Shown here in pieces: positions 6,746-63,480 of a DNA stretch of 64,000 nucleotides; within the stretch, counting starts at the first letter, position 1; every line of letters begins with the position of its first letter. The notes beneath the pieces are model-generated. The model was given only the letters and a program-made list of their open reading frames with translations. It did no database searches and had not been told where the DNA came from. Position numbers and translations under genes: made by a program. This DNA is from a phage: the sequence record PZ386961.1; one strand, written 5' to 3'.

Positions 6746-6774
6746 ATTCTAGTTTGTTGATACTCTATTGTCAA
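6746..6774 (-). promoter_or_regulatory. sigma70-like promoter TTGACA-N17-TAGAAT
   Basis: Minus-strand reading: TTGACA, 17-nt spacer, TAGAAT; 37 nt upstream of SSB start. Confidence 0.55.
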
Positions 6775-10976: not shown

Positions 10977-11399
10977 TTATTTCTCTCTCAGTTGGTTAAG
11001 TTTCTTTCTAGAACATTTTAAGTTTTCGGATGAAGAAAAGTCAAGTGTCTTTTCAGAACGTGGATAATAGTGCCTATCCCAAGAAGTTTCAACATCGTTA
11101 ATCAGTGATGCTAGATTACACAGGTCTGTACCACTTTGCAACCTCTTTTTAAGAGAATCTAGTAAAGCAACTGTATCTTTAGCTTTACGTCTCGCTGTAG
11201 CAACATCTTTCATATGCTCAAATACAGAGCATTTTAAGTCATCTTCATAGTTTTCAGACAACTCTATTTCATGTTGTATATCAACCATTCTCCTGTGATG
11301 GTGAGCATATTCCCGTTGAGCAGCAATGTCAAGTTCTTCCAACTTCTGCAAAGCTCTAACGAAGTCAGCTATGTCTGGGTGAACAAACATTTTCTGCAT
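10977..11399 (-). CDS. hypothetical protein
   Basis: 140-aa ORF, last gene before divergent intergenic region. Confidence 0.5.
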   Translation of the reverse strand: MQKMFVHPDIADFVRALQKLEELDIAAQREYAHHHRRMVDIQHEIELSENYEDDLKCSVFEHMKDVATARRKAKDTVALLDSLKKRLQSGTDLCNLASLINDVETSWDRHYYPRSEKTLDFSSSENLKCSRKKLNQLREK

Positions 11400-11574
11400 G
11401 TAAGCCTCTTTTAAGTAACTATTAAGTTTTAATCTTTTATCTTAACGTATTCTATACGTTATACTTTAAAGCTTTTTAAAAGCTATTAAACAATCTTTTA
11501 AGAGTTTTAAAGTATCTGTATAGTTAAACTGTTAAGTAACCTTTTAAGTAAAAACCCACTTCGCAAAGATTAAC

Positions 11575-11597
11575 ACCTTGTCAAGTACATTGTCAAC
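11575..11597 (+). promoter_or_regulatory. conserved 23-bp motif ACCTTGTCAAGTACATTGTCAAC (two TTGTCAA half-sites)
   Basis: Near-identical copy at 54077..54099; both upstream of first gene of a plus-strand operon. Confidence 0.5.
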
Positions 11598-11656
11598 TTG
11601 CTTTTTATAATTTTTTGCAGTAATGTATGAGGTTAATGATTTTAGAGGGAGTAAAA

Positions 11657-14356
11657 ATGGAAAACGTAGATTTTAAAAACTTACATTTAGTTGGTGATAC
11701 AGAAACTGATGGTTTACTCCTTGAGTTCACTAAAGTTCACGTAATGGCTTTTGCAGACTATAAATCTGACGATGAAGAGCCACCTGTATGGGTCTTTACA
11801 GATGAGCCTATCCTCGGTCACAAGTACACTAAGTACATTAAGGGTGGTTTACGTGAAGGTGTTGAGTTTGCGTTAAAGGCAAAACGACTTTGTATCCATA
11901 ATGGCCTCGGTTATGACTGGTGGGTTTTCAATCACATTGCACCGGATTTATGGAACTTTGATAATCCAAAATGTAAGCCGTGGAGTAATTTCTTTCAGGA
12001 TTCTCTTATTCAGTCTCGTGTTCAGTGGATGGATAGGCCAACTCCAAAAGGCTATAAAGGTGCTCATGGCTTGGCTGCATGGGGTGCTCGTGTTGGTGTT
12101 CGTAAACCAGAGATTGAACATTGGGGTGTGTGGGATGCAGAAATCTTCACTCGTGTTGTAGAAGATATCCGTATTAACGCCAAAACTAAACGGGCACTTG
12201 ATAATGAGTATCTCAAGCTTAAGAAGTGTGGCATAGATACTTATGAAACCTATATGCGAGCTAAAGAAACATCTTTCTGGATGAGTCAACAAGCTATCAA
12301 TGGTTGGAAAGCTGATAAGGAGCTTATGGAGTTTCATGTAAAGGAACTTGACAAGTTGACTAATGAGCTTGCTTCAGAAGTTGAACCACATCTTCCTCCA
12401 ACTATTAAGACCAAAGGTAAAGTCACTGGAGAAGAGTTTGCAAAAGCTTGGAATGAGTATGTTGAAGCATTCGGTCATGCAGATGGACTGAAGAGAATTA
12501 CCAAGTACCCTAAGACAAAGTACCGTCAGCAGGTACGTAACGGTGAGATGCAGACATACGAAATCAAGCCATTTGGTAAGCCAACTACAAAGATTTTTAA
12601 CATTGAAAAGAGAAATTGCTACACCCCAACCAACCCTGTAACTGGTGAAGAGTACAAGGAAGGCTTTGTAGCAATGAAGGATGCTCGTGCAATTTGCAAT
12701 GAGTTGAATGCAAAGATTGGTAAGAAATGCAAAGACTGGAAGCCAGTGAAAACAGTCAAAACTGTGAAGTACTATAACAGTCACGTTGTTAACCACTTTG
12801 AACTTGAGTCAAGTCGCTACACAGGTTTGATTGATGCACCATATACACCAATTGAGTTCGAAGTTTCTCGCATGACTCAGGTAGCAGTTGTTAAAGACTA
12901 CTTGAAATCAGTTGGTTGGATTCCAGATGACTGGAACTACAAGAAAGACTCAGATGGTCGCCCTGTCAAAGTTTGTCGTTTCAAAGACAATAAAAAGATG
13001 ATTACAAAACATCCTAAGTGGCAGGAAATGGTTGAGCGGTGTGGTTTGAGTTATGTTGAACATGAAGGTGTTCAGTACATTGAGCATAACTGGTCCGTGA
13101 AGAAATACACAGATTTGCTTGAACCTTGCTTAATCCGTACTTCACCAAAACTTACTGAATCATCTTATGATACGATTGAAGGTGAGCTTGGACAGAAGAT
13201 TGCTAAGTACTACACTTTGATGCACAGACGCAGAACTATTGAGAACTCAAAGGATGACGAGAAAGGTTGGCTGAACCAGATTCGTCCAGATGGTCGCCTT
13301 AGTGCTGGTGCAATGGTATTTGGTACTTCAACTGGACGTATGACACAATATGGTATTGTAAACGTACCGTCTGGTGCTGCTGTCTATGGGGAACCAATGA
13401 GGGCAGTGTGGATTTGTGAAGAAGGTACAGATATCATCTCCGTAGACCAAAACTCAGCCCAGCTAGTTCTTCTTTGTAACTTTATGGGTGATGAAGACTT
13501 CACTAAAGCGGTAACTGAGGGTAAAGAGTCAGTTGAGTTCACTAAGCAAGATGATGGTAGATACTACTGCAAGCATCTTGACAAGTATCTTAACCCAGAA
13601 ACTGACAAGTATCTGCGTTATGATGCTGAGAATGACCTCTATGAAGTCTACACAGGTACTGATGCACATACACTGAACAGTATTTACTTTGGTTTGAACA
13701 AGGAAGAAGATATTGTTCGTTGTAGGGAGACACAGGATGAGGAACTTCTTCACGAGATTACAAAAGGCCGTAAGAAGGCTAAGAATGGTATCTACGCCCT
13801 GTTATTTGGAGCCGGAGACGAGAAGTTTGCAAAAACTATCAAGGCATCATCTACGGAAGAAGGTGCATTGACTAAACAAACTTACTTTGTGCGTCTGCCT
13901 AAGATTAAAAAGCTTCTGGACAGGTTAGAGGAAGACTTCAAAGCAACTAAGAAAGCACTTGAAGAGGTTTTCGGAAAAACTTCTGCAATTGCCAAAGGTG
14001 GCTATATCAAAGTTGCTGGAGCGTGGTTATGGTGTAAATCTCCACATAAGTTATTGAATTACACACTTATGGGCAGTGAGGCGCAGGTGCAGAATGAGGG
14101 TATTAACTTGGCTAACAGAGAGTTAACAGAGCGCAAGCTTACAGTTCTAAATGGTAGGAAGCCCGCTATTGGTGCTAGGTGGGTCTGTAGTTACCACGAT
14201 GAGGTCTCTTTAGAGGTTCCAACCAAAGATGTACCTGATGTTAAGGAAATTATTGATAGAATGTATGGTCAAGCATCAAAAAATCTTGGATTAAAGAGTA
14301 AGACGCTTGTTACAGGCACTGGTAAGGTAGGTAAGACATGGTACGCCGTACACTAA
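11657..14356 (+). CDS. DNA polymerase, family A (T7-like, with 3'-5' exonuclease domain)
   Basis: Exo I motif GDTETDGL, motif A DQNSAQL, motif B KKAKNGIYALLFG, motif C YHDE; start chosen at ATG 11657 after RBS GAGGGAG. Confidence 0.9.
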   Translation: MENVDFKNLHLVGDTETDGLLLEFTKVHVMAFADYKSDDEEPPVWVFTDEPILGHKYTKYIKGGLREGVEFALKAKRLCIHNGLGYDWWVFNHIAPDLWNFDNPKCKPWSNFFQDSLIQSRVQWMDRPTPKGYKGAHGLAAWGARVGVRKPEIEHWGVWDAEIFTRVVEDIRINAKTKRALDNEYLKLKKCGIDTYETYMRAKETSFWMSQQAINGWKADKELMEFHVKELDKLTNELASEVEPHLPPTIKTKGKVTGEEFAKAWNEYVEAFGHADGLKRITKYPKTKYRQQVRNGEMQTYEIKPFGKPTTKIFNIEKRNCYTPTNPVTGEEYKEGFVAMKDARAICNELNAKIGKKCKDWKPVKTVKTVKYYNSHVVNHFELESSRYTGLIDAPYTPIEFEVSRMTQVAVVKDYLKSVGWIPDDWNYKKDSDGRPVKVCRFKDNKKMITKHPKWQEMVERCGLSYVEHEGVQYIEHNWSVKKYTDLLEPCLIRTSPKLTESSYDTIEGELGQKIAKYYTLMHRRRTIENSKDDEKGWLNQIRPDGRLSAGAMVFGTSTGRMTQYGIVNVPSGAAVYGEPMRAVWICEEGTDIISVDQNSAQLVLLCNFMGDEDFTKAVTEGKESVEFTKQDDGRYYCKHLDKYLNPETDKYLRYDAENDLYEVYTGTDAHTLNSIYFGLNKEEDIVRCRETQDEELLHEITKGRKKAKNGIYALLFGAGDEKFAKTIKASSTEEGALTKQTYFVRLPKIKKLLDRLEEDFKATKKALEEVFGKTSAIAKGGYIKVAGAWLWCKSPHKLLNYTLMGSEAQVQNEGINLANRELTERKLTVLNGRKPAIGARWVCSYHDEVSLEVPTKDVPDVKEIIDRMYGQASKNLGLKSKTLVTGTGKVGKTWYAVH

Positions 14357-14841
14357 CACTTCAAGATTACAAGGATAATTTTATTTACGACCCCGACAAA
14401 GGGGTCTTCTACAACAAGTATGACAGGAATAGACAAGCTAAAGCTGGGCAGATTGCAGGAGGTGCTGATGCTTACGGTTACAAAGTACTTAAATTCAAAG
14501 ATGTCGTAATAAAAATTCATCACCTCGTTTGGTGGTTCGAACATGGTTACAAACCCACTAAGATGATAGACCACATTGATGGTAACAGAAGTAATAATCA
14601 CATTGCTAATCTTAGGGAGACTGATAAATACGGAAATGCACAAAATAGAATAAAGCAGACGACTAATAAATCAGGTTACAAGGGTGTACATTACTTTAAA
14701 GACTGTAATAAGTGGAGGGCAGCTATAACATGCAGAGGTAAAAGGACATCACTTGGTTTATTTGACACACCAGAAGAAGCCCATAAAGCTTACTGTGAAG
14801 CTGCTATTAAACTCCACGGAGAGTTTGCAAAACTAAGTTGA
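14338..14841 (+). CDS. HNH homing endonuclease with AP2-like domain
   Basis: IDHIDGNRSNNHIANLRETDKYGN HNH motif and YKGVHYFKDCNKWRAAI AP2-like; overlaps polymerase stop. Confidence 0.75.
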   Translation: MVRRTLTLQDYKDNFIYDPDKGVFYNKYDRNRQAKAGQIAGGADAYGYKVLKFKDVVIKIHHLVWWFEHGYKPTKMIDHIDGNRSNNHIANLRETDKYGNAQNRIKQTTNKSGYKGVHYFKDCNKWRAAITCRGKRTSLGLFDTPEEAHKAYCEAAIKLHGEFAKLS

Positions 14842-16139: not shown

Positions 16140-17217
16140 AGATGGTTCCTTCAACGTCTGGTCATGTGTTGCTGTAGGTGACAAAGTTATCACAACCTAT
16201 GGTAAAGAAAATGGCAAGATGATGTTTGAAGAGTACACAGCAGAGCCTAAGAACATCGGTAAAAAGAATGAGCGTAACGCTGAACAGCAAGCTCTCTTTG
16301 AAGTTACTGCTAAGTATAAAAAGCAAGTTGACCGTAAAGGTTATGCTTACACAAAAGAATCTGCACAGAACACTGAGAAGGTAGGTGTACAACTTGCTCA
16401 CGATGCTGCAAAGGTTAGCCATGCAAAGTATCTGAAGTTCCCTGCTGATGCTCAACCAAAACTTGATGGTGTCCGTTGTAGAATTTCAAGACACTTGAGT
16501 ATTGGCAGTGTATTTACAGCATATTCTCGTGAGAATACTGTTTACAAAATCCCTACTGAACTAATACCTGACATTATGGCAATGTTAAGGCTCCACAAAG
16601 ATGTTGATGAATTTGATGGAGAGATTTATGCTCATGGGTGGGACTTAGAAGATATCGTCTCCATGATTAAAAATGAAGACAATCCTGACCGACATCTACT
16701 CAAGTTTTACTGGTATGATATCTGTGACAGTACTAAGACGTGGCCTGAGCGTAGAGATATCATTGAGACTTCACCATTGAATGACTTTAGAGATGGCTGT
16801 AAAGTTGTCCCTGTTAAGTCTCGTCGTGTAAATTCTTGGGAAGAGTTTGATGAAGCTCATGATAAGTGGGTTGAAGCTAAGTTTGAAGGTGCAATGTACC
16901 GTTCAATCTCTGAAGACTCCTTCTATGAGTGTTGTCACCGTTCATACTTCTTGATTAAGCACAAGAAGATGCACACTGAAGAGTTTAAAGTGACTGGTGT
17001 CAAGACCGATAAACGTGGGCATGGTAAGTTCGTTGTAGAGACTCTTCCTAACGTCTTTGTAGATGTTTCATGGAAAACTACACACGAGAAGAAACAGTAT
17101 CTTGCTGAACATCCTGAAGAGTTTATCGGGAAACCTTTAACGGTTCAGTTCCAGAAGATGACTCGTAAGGGTTCTTTACAGTTTCCTGTTGGGCTAGTTA
17201 TTAGGGATTATGAGTAA
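16114..17217 (+). CDS. ATP-dependent DNA ligase
   Basis: Motif I KLDGVR, motif III FDGEIY, motif IV EGAMYR, motif V LIKHKK; start set at ATG 16114. Confidence 0.8.
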   Translation: MTILYKQNKDGSFNVWSCVAVGDKVITTYGKENGKMMFEEYTAEPKNIGKKNERNAEQQALFEVTAKYKKQVDRKGYAYTKESAQNTEKVGVQLAHDAAKVSHAKYLKFPADAQPKLDGVRCRISRHLSIGSVFTAYSRENTVYKIPTELIPDIMAMLRLHKDVDEFDGEIYAHGWDLEDIVSMIKNEDNPDRHLLKFYWYDICDSTKTWPERRDIIETSPLNDFRDGCKVVPVKSRRVNSWEEFDEAHDKWVEAKFEGAMYRSISEDSFYECCHRSYFLIKHKKMHTEEFKVTGVKTDKRGHGKFVVETLPNVFVDVSWKTTHEKKQYLAEHPEEFIGKPLTVQFQKMTRKGSLQFPVGLVIRDYE

Positions 17218-21255: not shown

Positions 21256-21797
21256 TTAAACTAATATTTGCAAGTGGTGAAAACGGTGAATTTGGTACTC
21301 CAACTGGTATGCCGTGGCCTCGACATAAAGAGGATATGCAAGAGTTTAAGAGACTCACTAAAGACAACTTAGTAGTAATGGGTAACGAGACTTTCAAAAC
21401 TCTGGGAAGTAAACCTTTACCTGAACGTGAAAACCTTATCTTAACAAACTCTGTGCCTTATTACGGTATAGATTTTAGTAAAGATGATGTTATGTTTGCT
21501 AAAGCGCATCAAGACTCTTTTGGAGCATTTTTAAAGTATCTTGATAGTAATATTGAAGAAGACGTCTTCGTAATTGGTGGTGTAGGTATTCTTGTCAGTG
21601 CTTTACCGTATGCTGATGTAGTGTTCCATACAGTTTTCCATGAAGTTACTGAAGAGGCAACTGTACATCTACCTTTTGAGAACTTCTTTGACAAGTTGCA
21701 TGACCGTAAAATTTTCGCTAAGATTCAGTCAAAACCATCAGAGGATGGTAAAGCAACTTTTGAAATTTATGTTCCACAAGTAAAAGGACACTTTTGA
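21252..21797 (+). CDS. dihydrofolate reductase
   Basis: IFASGENGEFG...MPWP...VVMGNETF motifs typical of DHFR; adjacent to thymidylate synthase. Confidence 0.8.
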   Translation: MIKLIFASGENGEFGTPTGMPWPRHKEDMQEFKRLTKDNLVVMGNETFKTLGSKPLPERENLILTNSVPYYGIDFSKDDVMFAKAHQDSFGAFLKYLDSNIEEDVFVIGGVGILVSALPYADVVFHTVFHEVTEEATVHLPFENFFDKLHDRKIFAKIQSKPSEDGKATFEIYVPQVKGHF

Positions 21798-53576: not shown

Positions 53577-53948
53577 TTATTTTTTAAGGGTTGCAACAGC
53601 AGAGAACGTTGGTTTGTTATCTGTCTGAGACTGACCACCGTTATCAGGGGTCTTCTTAGTGTCTGCTGCAATTGCTTTCATCTCACCTGCTGAGTGAGTC
53701 ATGATAGTTTTACCAGCCTCCATCATCGACTTCAGGTTTACATCGTCAGTCGTCAAACCGAACTCTGCAAGTTTAGCAGCATCCCTTGTAACAATTGCCT
53801 CAAACAACTTTGCAGCAAACTCAGCAGAATTATCAATGGTCAGTTGAGCTTTTACAAGTGAGCTTTTGTTACGAGAGCCTTTTGGTCTTCCAGATGGGTT
53901 TCCAGACTGGCCTTTTTTAAACTGGCCTTTGTTTGTTCTGTTTTTCAT
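53577..53948 (-). CDS. hypothetical protein with N-terminal basic GNPSGRPKG motif
   Basis: 123 aa; N-terminus NKGQFKKGQSGNPSGRPKGSRNK. Confidence 0.45.
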   Translation of the reverse strand: MKNRTNKGQFKKGQSGNPSGRPKGSRNKSSLVKAQLTIDNSAEFAAKLFEAIVTRDAAKLAEFGLTTDDVNLKSMMEAGKTIMTHSAGEMKAIAADTKKTPDNGGQSQTDNKPTFSAVATLKK

Positions 53949-54076
53949 TGGTATGCCTCTTATAAGACCTCTTAAAAGGCTTTTAAGATAAAAGATAGAT
54001 ATCCAGAAAGATATCTGTTTAAATAGCCTTTTTAGAGGAACCTTTTAAGTTATCTTCTAAGTATTTATAAGCCTAC

Positions 54077-54099
54077 ACCTTGTCAAGTACTTTGTCAAC
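54077..54099 (+). promoter_or_regulatory. conserved 23-bp motif ACCTTGTCAAGTACTTTGTCAAC (second copy)
   Basis: Matches 11575..11597 at 22 of 23 positions; about 100 nt upstream of first plus-strand gene of this block. Confidence 0.5.
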
Positions 54100-54197
54100 A
54101 ACTTTTTTAACTTGCAATAGTTCTTGACTTGTTGTATGGATTACTGTACCATCTTACTTAAAGCTGTAGGTCTGCCTTGTTCTACAAAGGAGACTTA

Positions 54198-61821: not shown

Positions 61822-61832
61822 AATATCTTAAG

Positions 61833-61860
61833 AGCCTCCTTAATCGGGGGCTTTTTAATT
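61833..61860 (+). terminator. rho-independent terminator-like hairpin plus T5
   Basis: agcctcc...gggggct stem (one G-U) followed by ttttt after last plus-strand gene. Confidence 0.45.
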
Positions 61861-63393
61861 TTTATAAAATTTATCGGTTGTCCCAACCGCTGGGTCACCA
61901 TCATATGTGAATAAAATATCTACCCTTCTTAACAACCTTCTTAATCTTACTCTCTATATAGTTATATAGTACTATATAGTATCTTAGTATCTATCTAGTG
62001 GTCTTAATAGCCCCTCTGTATAGCCCTTCTAAACACTCTTCTAACAAGCCTTCTTAACAACCTATACAATCACCTTAACCATCTCTCTATACGCTCTTAG
62101 AAGCCTCTATACACCTCTTAATCTCTAGGTAAGCTATGTTACCCTCTATAGGTGTTCACTAGGAAATACTAAACCTCTATATAGACTGTTTTAACAAACT
62201 TAACAGGAATATCTTTACAGACCTTATCTCACAAGGTCTAACACGGTACTAACAAGGTATCTTATAAGCCTGTTTATGCCTGTATTTTTAAAAGACTGTA
62301 TAGGTAATTATTCAGATTTTTAAAATTTTTATAAAATAGGACTATCAAGTCATTTTTTAGGGTCTTTGAAGGAACTCAAAAATATCTGTAGAAGATGTAT
62401 ATCTGCTTGGTAGCCCTTAACATCCCTGTAACATCCCCTTTGCAGAATTTTAAAGTATCCTTAACAATCTCTTAACAACTCTCTCAAGTTCTTAACATCT
62501 CTTCAGAGGTCTTAACAGATTCTTAACAGAACTAACAAGGTTGTAACAAGTTCTTAACAGTTGATACATGGGCTTTACAGAATCTTAACAGATGACTAAC
62601 AAGAGCTAACAAGTTAATTTTAAAGAGTTATTTTGTTAAGATAATTAACAAGTTTCTAACAAGTGTTTAATCTTTTTAACAAGCTATTAACATGGTCACT
62701 ACTCTTTTCTTATCGTTCCCTTTGCTTCTTAGTGATTCTTTAAACATACCTCTTAAAAGCTCTCTATAGCTCCTTGTAAGCTCTTTTAAGCCTCTTCCTA
62801 GTATTTACCCCTCAACTGTATGGATAGCTCTTTATAGGGCTTTACAGAGGCTTTTAAGGATATGCCAAAGACTCTTACAAGGCTTTTACGTGGTCTTAAC
62901 AGAGATTTAACAAGGGGCTAACAAGTCTCTAACAAGCATAACTATGTAGGGTTTGTTAAGAAATTGTTAAGGGGGCTAGCATTTACGTAACTTTTAAGCT
63001 ACTTTCTAAGTAACTTTAAAGCCCCTATAACATACTTTTTAGTGACTATCAAGGGGGTTGTTTAGTTATTCACAAGATACTAATCAGCCTATAAGCTTAC
63101 ACCCTTATAAGATTCTTTTAAGGCTCTGGGAAGCTCTATAAAGGGCTTTTTAGAGTGGGTTAATATGATTGCTTAAGTTAGGTTGATAAGGCTGTTATAG
63201 AGCTTTATAGAGCGTTTTAGTGGTTGCCCTTCCCTTTCGGGTTATGGGCTTTTATTTAAGTTGATTTGATAAGAGGTTATAGAGTAGACTATAGAGTTAT
63301 TGCTTTTAAGGTACGGGATAGATTCTATCGAATTAGTGGGATAGATTCTGGAAAGGGAAGGGAAAGGGTTGTATAGAGGCTATTACAGAGACG
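61861..63393. repeat. 1.5 kb repeat-dense non-coding region (CTTAACAG/CTAACAAG iterons, CTCTATAG and TATATAGT repeats, palindromes)
   Basis: No ORF of 60 aa or more; many short direct repeats read directly. Confidence 0.6.
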
Positions 63394-63443
63394 TAAAAAA
63401 GCCCCTATGAGATAGATTCTATCGAATCAATATAAAGGGGCTG
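63394..63443 (-). terminator. rho-independent terminator (agcccct...aggggct plus T6) with palindromic loop GATTCtatcGAATC
   Basis: Minus-strand stem followed by T-run downstream of 63481..63729. Confidence 0.5.
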
Positions 63444-63480
63444 TAAAGGTATCTGGGGCTAAATAGCCCCGTTGCGTCGA

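Follow-up and report, generated by a model that had tools for sequence, protein, structure and literature searches.

Genome layout and the two divergence points

The window, that is, the whole stretch of 64,000 nt that was analysed, belongs to a Felix O1-like myophage (Felixounavirus). It shares 97.6% identity with Salmonella phage Felix O1 around the polymerase gene and lies in the reverse-complement orientation. The Felix O1 genome is organised in four transcription units that diverge between genes 96/97 and between genes 40/41 (Whichard et al. 2010, PMC3185647), and it therefore has two divergence points. In the window, these are the intergenic regions between the gp97 homologue and the DNA polymerase gene and between the gp41 homologue and the gp40 block (Table 1). 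They are the only two divergent intergenic regions, and the motif studied here sits exactly at these two places.

Some annotations around the polymerase gene deserve comment. The start of the gene was placed at 11627 by the ORF finder and at the equivalent of 11636 in RefSeq Felix O1, while an ATG at 11657 is favoured by a conserved GAGGGAG ribosome-binding site and by the alignment across relatives. Erwinia-type relatives (L032, 1050-1470; L065, 2468-2944) carry an HNH endonuclease gene between the divergent promoter region and the polymerase gene. Two public records, GU169904.1 ('Staphylococcus phage SA1', 147 kb) and MG065664.1 ('Campylobacter phage A132'), contain polymerase regions ~94-96% identical to that of this enterobacterial phage and are probably contaminated or mislabelled.

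A 25-bp element is shared by both divergence points

The motif ACCTTGTCAAGTACWTTGTCAAC was found on the plus strand at 11575-11597 and 54077-54099, and the two copies differ only at the W position. This agrees with the first-pass annotation, which had reported copies at 11575 and 54077 with one mismatch. A genome-wide motif search returned exactly two copies in the window and exactly two, at homologous places, in the full 86,155-bp Felix O1 genome. No further match was present in the window at up to 3 mismatches, and none appeared in 100 shuffles. The shared block is in fact 25 bp long, ACACCTTGTCAAGTAC[A/T]TTGTCAAC (= ACACCTTGTCAAGTACWTTGTCAAC), and begins two bases earlier (ACACC...), at 11573 and 54075. 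On its own, the heptamer TTGTCAA is present in 32 copies where 21 are expected, only a mild enrichment. Scanning public viral contigs for TTGTCAAGNNNNNTGTCAA gave about 120 single chance matches in unrelated contigs.

The near-identity of the two copies is not maintained by concerted evolution or gene conversion, since the spacer variants differ between both sites of the same contig. A duplicated promoter-gene cassette was also rejected, as the gp97 and gp41 proteins have no similarity to each other.

Two further short sequences are common to both regions. The window contains the 12-mer AACCTTTTAAGT (plus strand) only twice, once past each motif copy at a distance of 23 and 24 nt, respectively. 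It would lie at about +12 to +25 of the predicted leftward transcripts and may be a shared leader element. No known RNA family in Rfam matched the leaders, and two miRNA hits were far below threshold. The 14-mer ATCTTTTATCTTAA is present in both divergent regions in inverted orientation, at 11432-11445 (plus strand) and 53983-53996, with one copy per strand in the window.

Table 1. Positions of the elements, promoter candidates and genes discussed in the text
Feature	Position	Strand	Remarks
Site 1 shared 25-bp element	11573..11597	minus	minus-strand sequence GTTGACAATGTACTTGACAAGGTGT; conserved in 29 IMG/VR relatives
Site 1 outer TTGACA, proposed -35 of P97 (gp97 block)	11591..11596	minus	best minus-strand PWM candidate in 21/21 variants; same hexamer in the ASO1A annotation
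Site 1 inner TTGACA	11579..11584	minus	in spacer, about -24..-19; 0 variable columns
Site 1 extended -10, TGT + TAATCT (TGn-TAnnnT)	11567..11575	minus	relatives: TGT/TGG + TAATCT/TAGTCT
Site 1 A-tract ttataaaaagcaag, UP-element-like	11597..11610	minus	just upstream of -35
Site 2 shared 25-bp element	54075..54099	minus	minus-strand sequence GTTGACAAAGTACTTGACAAGGTGT
Site 2 outer TTGACA, proposed -35 of P41 (gp41/gp42/tRNA block)	54093..54098	minus	PWM 13.0; best minus-strand candidate in 11/11 variants
Site 2 inner TTGACA	54081..54086	minus	in spacer, about -23..-18; invariant
Site 2 -10, TAGGCT	54070..54075	minus	N17 from outer -35; variants TAGGCT/TAGCCT/TAAGTT/TAGTGT
Site 2 A-tract agttaaaaaagttg	54099..54112	minus	upstream of -35
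Promoter candidate, polymerase operon, TTGCTT-N17-TAATGT	11598..11626	plus	weak, PWM about 7; TTGCTT invariant; -10 TAATGT/TAAGGT/TAGGGT/TAGTGT
Promoter candidate, gp40 block, TTGACT-N17-TACCAT	54124..54152	plus	score 12.6; invariant in all relatives
gp97 homologue	10977-11399	minus	faces DNA polymerase (plus)
gp41 homologue	53577-53948	minus	faces gp40 block (plus)
ORF85-like HTH_3 (XRE-type) regulator, 109 aa	19775..20104	plus	PHROG 1373, E=1.5e-26; Pfam HTH_3, 39.4 bits; only annotated transcription factor
Shared 12-mer, first copy	11538..11549	minus	23 nt beyond motif; about +12..+23 of the predicted P97 transcript
Shared 12-mer, second copy	54039..54050	minus	24 nt beyond motif
Wc4-1 site 1, TTGACA-N17-TAGGCT			score 14.5
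Wc4-1 site 2, TTGACA-N18-TGn-TACCCT			score 13.3
phiEa104 site 1, TTGACA-N18-TACATT			score 12.7; second minus-strand candidate ~120 bp away, TTGACT-N18-TATGAT, 13.6
phiEa104 site 2, TTGACA-N16-TAGAAT			score 14.1
phiEa104, aataaaaagccc-TTGACA-ttctac-TTGACA-ggggc-TAAAGT	16494		non-homologous locus
phiEa104, TTGACA-tcgaat-TTGACA-gaacg-TATGTT	2390		non-homologous locus, ~110 nt upstream of rIIB
Wc4-1, TTGACA-atggaa-TTGACC-atgtg-TACTGT	21199		non-homologous locus, near-match

Two hexamers within the element are invariant among relatives

Relatives were collected from IMG/VR, 29 for site 1 and 28 for site 2, and reduced to 21 and 11 distinct sequences (32 variants). Because the sampled relatives are closely related, the resolution of the resulting footprint rests on about 6-7 divergent lineages. 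Within the layout TGTCAA-N6-TGTCAA, none of the 24 hexamer columns varies among the 32 variants, while 10 of the 12 columns between the hexamers do (for example GTACA, GTGCA, GCGCA, GTGAA, GTTAT, GAGGA, and TCCCC). The 12-bp offset stays constant while the intervening bases vary. In the other intergenic columns, 103 of 405 are variable, which differs from the hexamers at p=0.0011 (one-sided Fisher test). The invariant unit comprises exactly the six bases of the -35 consensus; the preceding T and the following base can change.

The element reads as the core of predicted minus-strand promoters

Read on the other strand, TGTCAA becomes TTGACA, which is the consensus -35 hexamer of sigma-70 promoters. 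The minus-strand sequences are ttataaaaagcaag-TTGACA-atgtac-TTGACA-aggTGt-TAATCT at site 1 and agttaaaaaagttg-TTGACA-aagtac-TTGACA-aggtg-TAGGCT at site 2. Promoter candidates were scored in 245-bp stretches with an approximate sigma-70 weight matrix (PWM) built from textbook hexamer frequencies, and the top minus-strand candidate uses the outer hexamer in 32 of 32 variants. This hexamer matches TTGACA at 6/6 positions at both sites. It is followed by a spacer of N18 at site 1 (to TGn-TAATCT/TAGTCT) and of N17 at site 2, within the 16-18 bp range, and by a -10 that has the A2 and T6 of the consensus and matches TATAAT at 3/6 positions overall. Variation of the -10 among relatives is confined to positions 3-5, with T1, A2, and T6 constant, as is the TG at site 1; this is the pattern expected of a real -10 element. 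Both candidates face a minus-strand gene block, as the gp97 homologue starts at 11399 and the gp41 homologue at 53948, and the scans revealed no terminators or genes between the candidates and gp97/gp41.

The scores themselves, 12.0 for site 1 and 13.0 for site 2, correspond to about the 90th-95th percentile of the best-per-250-bp background. A stricter consensus promoter scan called neither site because their -10s match 3/6 positions. With modest scores and a silent consensus scan, the argument for promoters therefore rests on conservation and context and not on score.

In the window, 33 candidates score at least 12, and 13 of them lie in non-coding DNA, which makes up 16% of the sequence. 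According to our reading of the ORF layout, all 13 are co-oriented with the local genes. Most of them have an A-tract directly before the -35 (…AAAAAGTTG-TTGACA), resembling a proximal UP element, and both motif copies have one too on the minus strand. On the plus strand, the invariant CTTGCTTTTT immediately 3' of site 1 is explained by the A-tract of the minus-strand promoter. The other strong non-coding sigma-70-like candidates, also co-oriented with genes, are at 6774, 14838, 17374, 19142, 23374, 50493, 51970, 52061, 53564, and 59222.

We estimate a probability of roughly 0.75 that both copies form the core of sigma-70-type promoters heading two leftward units. The exact TTGACA, the suitably spaced and footprinted -10, and the upstream A-tract indicate that the element most likely drives the minus-strand gp97 and gp41/gp42/tRNA units and not the plus-strand polymerase and late blocks. 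From the sequence, its conservation, the outgroups, and the gene context, we infer promoter activity and start sites as follows. Host RNA polymerase would read the A-rich UP-like tract, the outer TTGACA as the -35, a 17/18-bp spacer, and the TAnnnT -10. Transcription would run leftward from predicted starts near 11560, into the gp97 replication and nucleotide-metabolism block, and near 54063, into gp41-gp42 and the tRNA cluster. Both sites would be the first promoters of the genome's two leftward units, with the plus-strand operons having back-to-back promoters of their own.

Promoters had already been predicted at these places. The Felix O1 paper gave P41 as TTGACA(N15)TATAGG at 21515-21541 and nothing comparable in the 96-97 region (PMC3185647); this P41 begins at the outer hexamer of site 2. 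In the record of phage ASO1A (GenBank MZ726791), promoters are annotated over both sites in the gp97/gp41 direction, as outer TTGACA-N16-GTTAAT at site 1 and inner TTGACA-N15-AATACT at site 2. The promoter reading is therefore not new. The sequences, strand, and direction are the same as ours, while the two sets of annotators disagree on the hexamer and the -10 used. Neither source remarked on the doubled -35, on the invariance of both hexamers, or on the 25-bp element that the two sites have in common. What is new here is that the two sites are the same element, a conserved variant with a doubled -35.

The plus-strand blocks have promoter candidates of their own

The first-pass annotation had placed the motif upstream of two plus-strand operons as a likely operator for a phage or host regulator, arguing that its spacing to the nearest TATAAT is wrong for a simple sigma70 promoter. 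That spacing is indeed unsuitable on the plus strand, where the TATAAT at 11606-11611 lies 10 and 22 nt from the TTGTCA hexamers. In divergent relatives it is replaced by TGAAAC, TGTGTC, TGAAGA, and others. TTGTCA was rejected as a plus-strand -35 at both sites: no usable -10 occurs at N15-19 at site 1, and at site 2 the arrangement TTGTCA-N18-TGc-AATAGT (9.4) is made redundant by the stronger TTGACT-N17-TACCAT.

The position of the motif upstream of both blocks, and its close contact at site 1 with the weak TTGCTT-N17-TAATGT candidate, would fit an operator or activator site that controls the polymerase operon and the gp40 block. However, the plus-strand candidate lies 1 nt from the motif at site 1 but 25 nt from it at site 2, and in Wc4-1 the two gaps are 5 and 15 nt; such unequal gaps argue against a common activator geometry. 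Moreover, neither the TATAAT by site 1 nor the matching position at site 2 is conserved, and the site 2 candidate TTGACT-N17-TACCAT (12.6) needs no activator. We consider action on the plus-strand operons very doubtful. Hence, the idea of a regulatory element holds in that the motif is conserved, marks the boundaries of operons at two places, and is no sigma-70 promoter of the plus strand, but it was assigned to the wrong strand, the hexamer being TTGACA on the minus strand. A role as an operator would survive only as a possible second function of the inner hexamer, and the ORF85-like HTH protein, a candidate binder, does not co-occur with the layout in outgroups.

Outgroup phages keep candidate divergent promoters at the same places

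Two outgroups were compared, Pectobacterium phage Wc4-1 and Erwinia phage phiEa104, with polymerase identities of 66% and 62%, respectively; both have the same four-unit layout. Each of their divergence points keeps a single TGTCAAG that leads to a canonical promoter on the gp97/gp41 side, with one TTGACA and a -10 at N16-18 at both sites in both phages (Table 1). Both phages also have separate promoters in the opposite direction, for example TTGACC-N17-CATACT and TTGACA-N17-TACCAT in Wc4-1, the latter being the equivalent of the gp40-block candidate. Outgroup promoters in both directions indicate that back-to-back divergent host-type promoters are the ancestral state.

The inner hexamer doubles the -35

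The inner TTGACA is as invariant as the outer one and always 12 bp away from it, and a plain promoter model gives no reason for an invariant second hexamer in the spacer. It does not serve convincingly as a -35 of its own, because no usable -10 exists at N15-19 at site 1, and the AATACT that the ASO1A annotation uses at N15 of site 2 (8.4) changes in divergent relatives. A second TTGACA is seen in none of the window's 11 other strong promoter candidates.

Exact TTGACA-N6-TTGACA occurs twice in the window, twice in Felix O1, twice in phiEa104, and not in Wc4-1, compared with 0.01-0.05 in shuffles. The two phiEa104 copies and a near-match in Wc4-1 lie at non-homologous loci (Table 1). With copies at non-homologous outgroup loci and numbers above the shuffled level, the doubled -35 thus resembles a promoter subtype that recurs within this subfamily. 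The phiEa104 element at 16494 is invariant in 8 Erwinia phages, but so is more than 100 bp downstream, so this comparison cannot isolate the inner hexamer. 

In phiEa104 (L218), at 16480-16700, the doubled -35 candidate follows immediately after gp032 and points into the non-coding region equivalent to that at 61822-63480 of the window, which in phiEa104 carries TTCTAAACNG repeats. Across 8 Erwinia/Salmonella Kolesnikvirus genomes, the sequence is the same over the promoter and the more than 100 bp that follow it, including in genomes with a different gene upstream. This region could be a transcription-activated origin or a non-coding RNA.

Going further, TTGACA-N6-TTGACA followed by a -10 5-6 bp on might define a distinct, constrained class of Ounavirinae promoters, read by a factor or through a special mode of RNA polymerase binding, that would act in Felix O1-like phages as a timing switch between left and right at the divergence points. 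We regard this as a tentative and rather unlikely proposal. Literature searches returned no description of a doubled -35 in Felix O1-like phages.

Other repeats in the window

A 1.66-kb non-coding region at the convergence point (61822-63480) is packed with repeats, including several longer repeat families. Within 62041-62936, one strand carries 12 copies of YTAACARG, often paired at a distance of 11 bp (TAACAAGnnnnTAACAAG); the window as a whole has 30 copies where 14.7 are expected. The array resembles iterons and might serve as a replication origin or as a set of binding sites for a regulator. CTTTTAAG/CTTAAAAG is about 4-fold over-represented (24 in the window, 6.0 expected). Each divergent intergenic region has three of these copies, and six fall in the non-coding DNA at 62.7-63.3 kb. 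Its sites include 11408, 11495, 11541, 53971, 53980, 54042, and 62752-63303, and some copies overlap ribosome-binding contexts such as TTAAAAGAGG.

Alternative explanations for the conserved hexamers

The hexamers may have a second role in addition to the promoter. A phage or host protein bound on the -35 and the spacer would shut off both leftward promoters and, in the manner of a switch, might release or assist the weak polymerase promoter that stands back to back with the leftward one at site 1. Several features would suit such a site. The repeated half-sites keep a fixed 12-bp spacing around variable bases; the inner hexamer is invariant for no promoter-based reason and is missing from the other 11 strong candidates; and the polymerase promoter candidate is weak (about 7), with the hexamers at about -40 and -52 of it as estimated from sequence. 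The phage also encodes an XRE-type HTH protein, the ORF85-like regulator, which is found in every relative with the tandem motif. It is encoded inside the polymerase-side unit and diverges faster than the polymerase (64-77% against 89-92% identity in sister genera). A search of solved structures returned only generic XRE proteins, and a Sigma70_r4 hit was below threshold and not counted. However, its co-occurrence with the motif among Felix-group phages could equally stem from common descent, no further motif copy lies near the HTH gene, and ORF85 homologues are absent from phiEa104, which has two copies of the doubled layout, and from Wc4-1, which nearly has it. Shared ancestry, together with the layout in phages without the homologue, means that the ORF85-like protein is not a convincing binder. 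Any protein binding to the hexamers is putative, and we take a dual role as a real but minor possibility.

The inner hexamer might otherwise be a neutral leftover of a 12-bp tandem duplication (TTGACAAnGTnn x2). The two 12-mers are identical at 9/12 positions (TTGACAATGTAC and TTGACAAGGTGT), and TTGACAAGGTG, identical to the inner hexamer plus flank, is also the -35 context of the candidate at 14838. Yet a relic should decay like the adjacent 5-6 bases, of which 10 of 12 columns vary, whereas the inner hexamer is constant at both sites. In addition, the layout recurs at unrelated outgroup loci, with two copies in phiEa104 against 0.01 expected. This makes a relic quite unlikely. Least probable of all, to the point of being barely credible, is a replication-origin element, such as sites for a T7-like primase at strand-switch points. 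T7 primase recognises TTGTC and GTGTC, this phage encodes a primase/helicase and a polymerase of the T7 type, and both sites fall at local minima of cumulative GC skew. But the change in skew follows the direction of transcription, the iteron-like array lies elsewhere (62.0-62.9 kb), and the conserved unit is the whole hexamer with the -10 and the A-tract, as in 11 other promoter candidates.

Two sites for known factors were also considered. TTGCTTTTT at 11598 resembles the MotA box of T4 middle promoters, a box with TGCTT centred at -30 in a phage that encodes MotA and AsiA; this reading was rejected because TTGCTTTTT lies 0 or 15 nt from the candidate -10s instead of the required 11-13 bp, because a conserved -10 is lacking, and because the opposite-strand promoter, with its A-tract, accounts better for this sequence. 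An IHF site was rejected on spacing.

Discussion

An apparent operator upstream of two plus-strand operons turns out to consist largely of what appear to be ordinary host-type promoters on the other strand, half-annotated in public records. For Felix O1-type phages, which are used in Salmonella typing and biocontrol, the analysis provides a putative map of two divergent control regions, each with a strong leftward and a separate rightward promoter. If the second -35 box is a binding site, it would offer a handle on the timing of gene expression in these phages.

The genome paper called the temporal regulation of Felix O1 not known (PMC3185647), and a doubled -35 switch, if true, would be the step that it described as such. 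In its RT-PCR table, ORFs 41, 42, 96, and 97 all peak at 25 min, and ORFs 96, 101, and 105 are transcribed within 5 min (PMC3185647). These classes are compatible, at little resolution, with co-timed gp97 and gp41 units. Literature searches found no transcriptome or TSS data for Felix O1-like phages.

In its overall design, the element has familiar counterparts. The strong early promoters of virulent coliphages, such as those of T4 and T5 and the A1-A3 promoters of T7, combine a consensus -35 with an A-rich UP-like tract and sometimes an extended -10. The two sites resemble them in the TTGACA, in the A-tract at about -45..-40, in the TGn of site 1, in a predicted use by unmodified host RNA polymerase, and in a probable position at the head of early/middle units. 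Unlike them, they carry a second perfect TTGACA in the spacer at a fixed 12-bp offset, and we know of no described promoter class with this feature.

Direct repeats containing TGTCA or TTG(C/T) near the -35 position also recall the Pho box and the sites of lambda CII and P22 C1. The Pho box bound by PhoB is CTGTCAT-N4-CTGTCAT with an 11-bp period, located about 10 bp upstream of the -10, and in this phage a TATAAT does lie 10 nt downstream at site 1. A Pho box was rejected, since the period here is 12 bp and not 11, and neither divergent relatives nor site 2 have the TATAAT seen at 11606. The lambda CII/P22 C1 site is TTGC-N6-TTGC with a 10-bp period and straddles a poor -35; it was likewise rejected, as the arrangement here is TTGT-N8-TTGT and no conserved plus-strand -10 lies at the required distance.

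Another parallel in architecture is lambda OR, with its back-to-back divergent promoters PR and PRM and repeated sites over one -35 and spacer; a protein bound there could shut down transcription on one side in favour of the other. The differences from lambda OR are that this phage is virulent, that the half-sites coincide with the -35 consensus, and that direct or pseudo-palindromic hexamers 12 bp apart take the place of 17-bp dyad operators.
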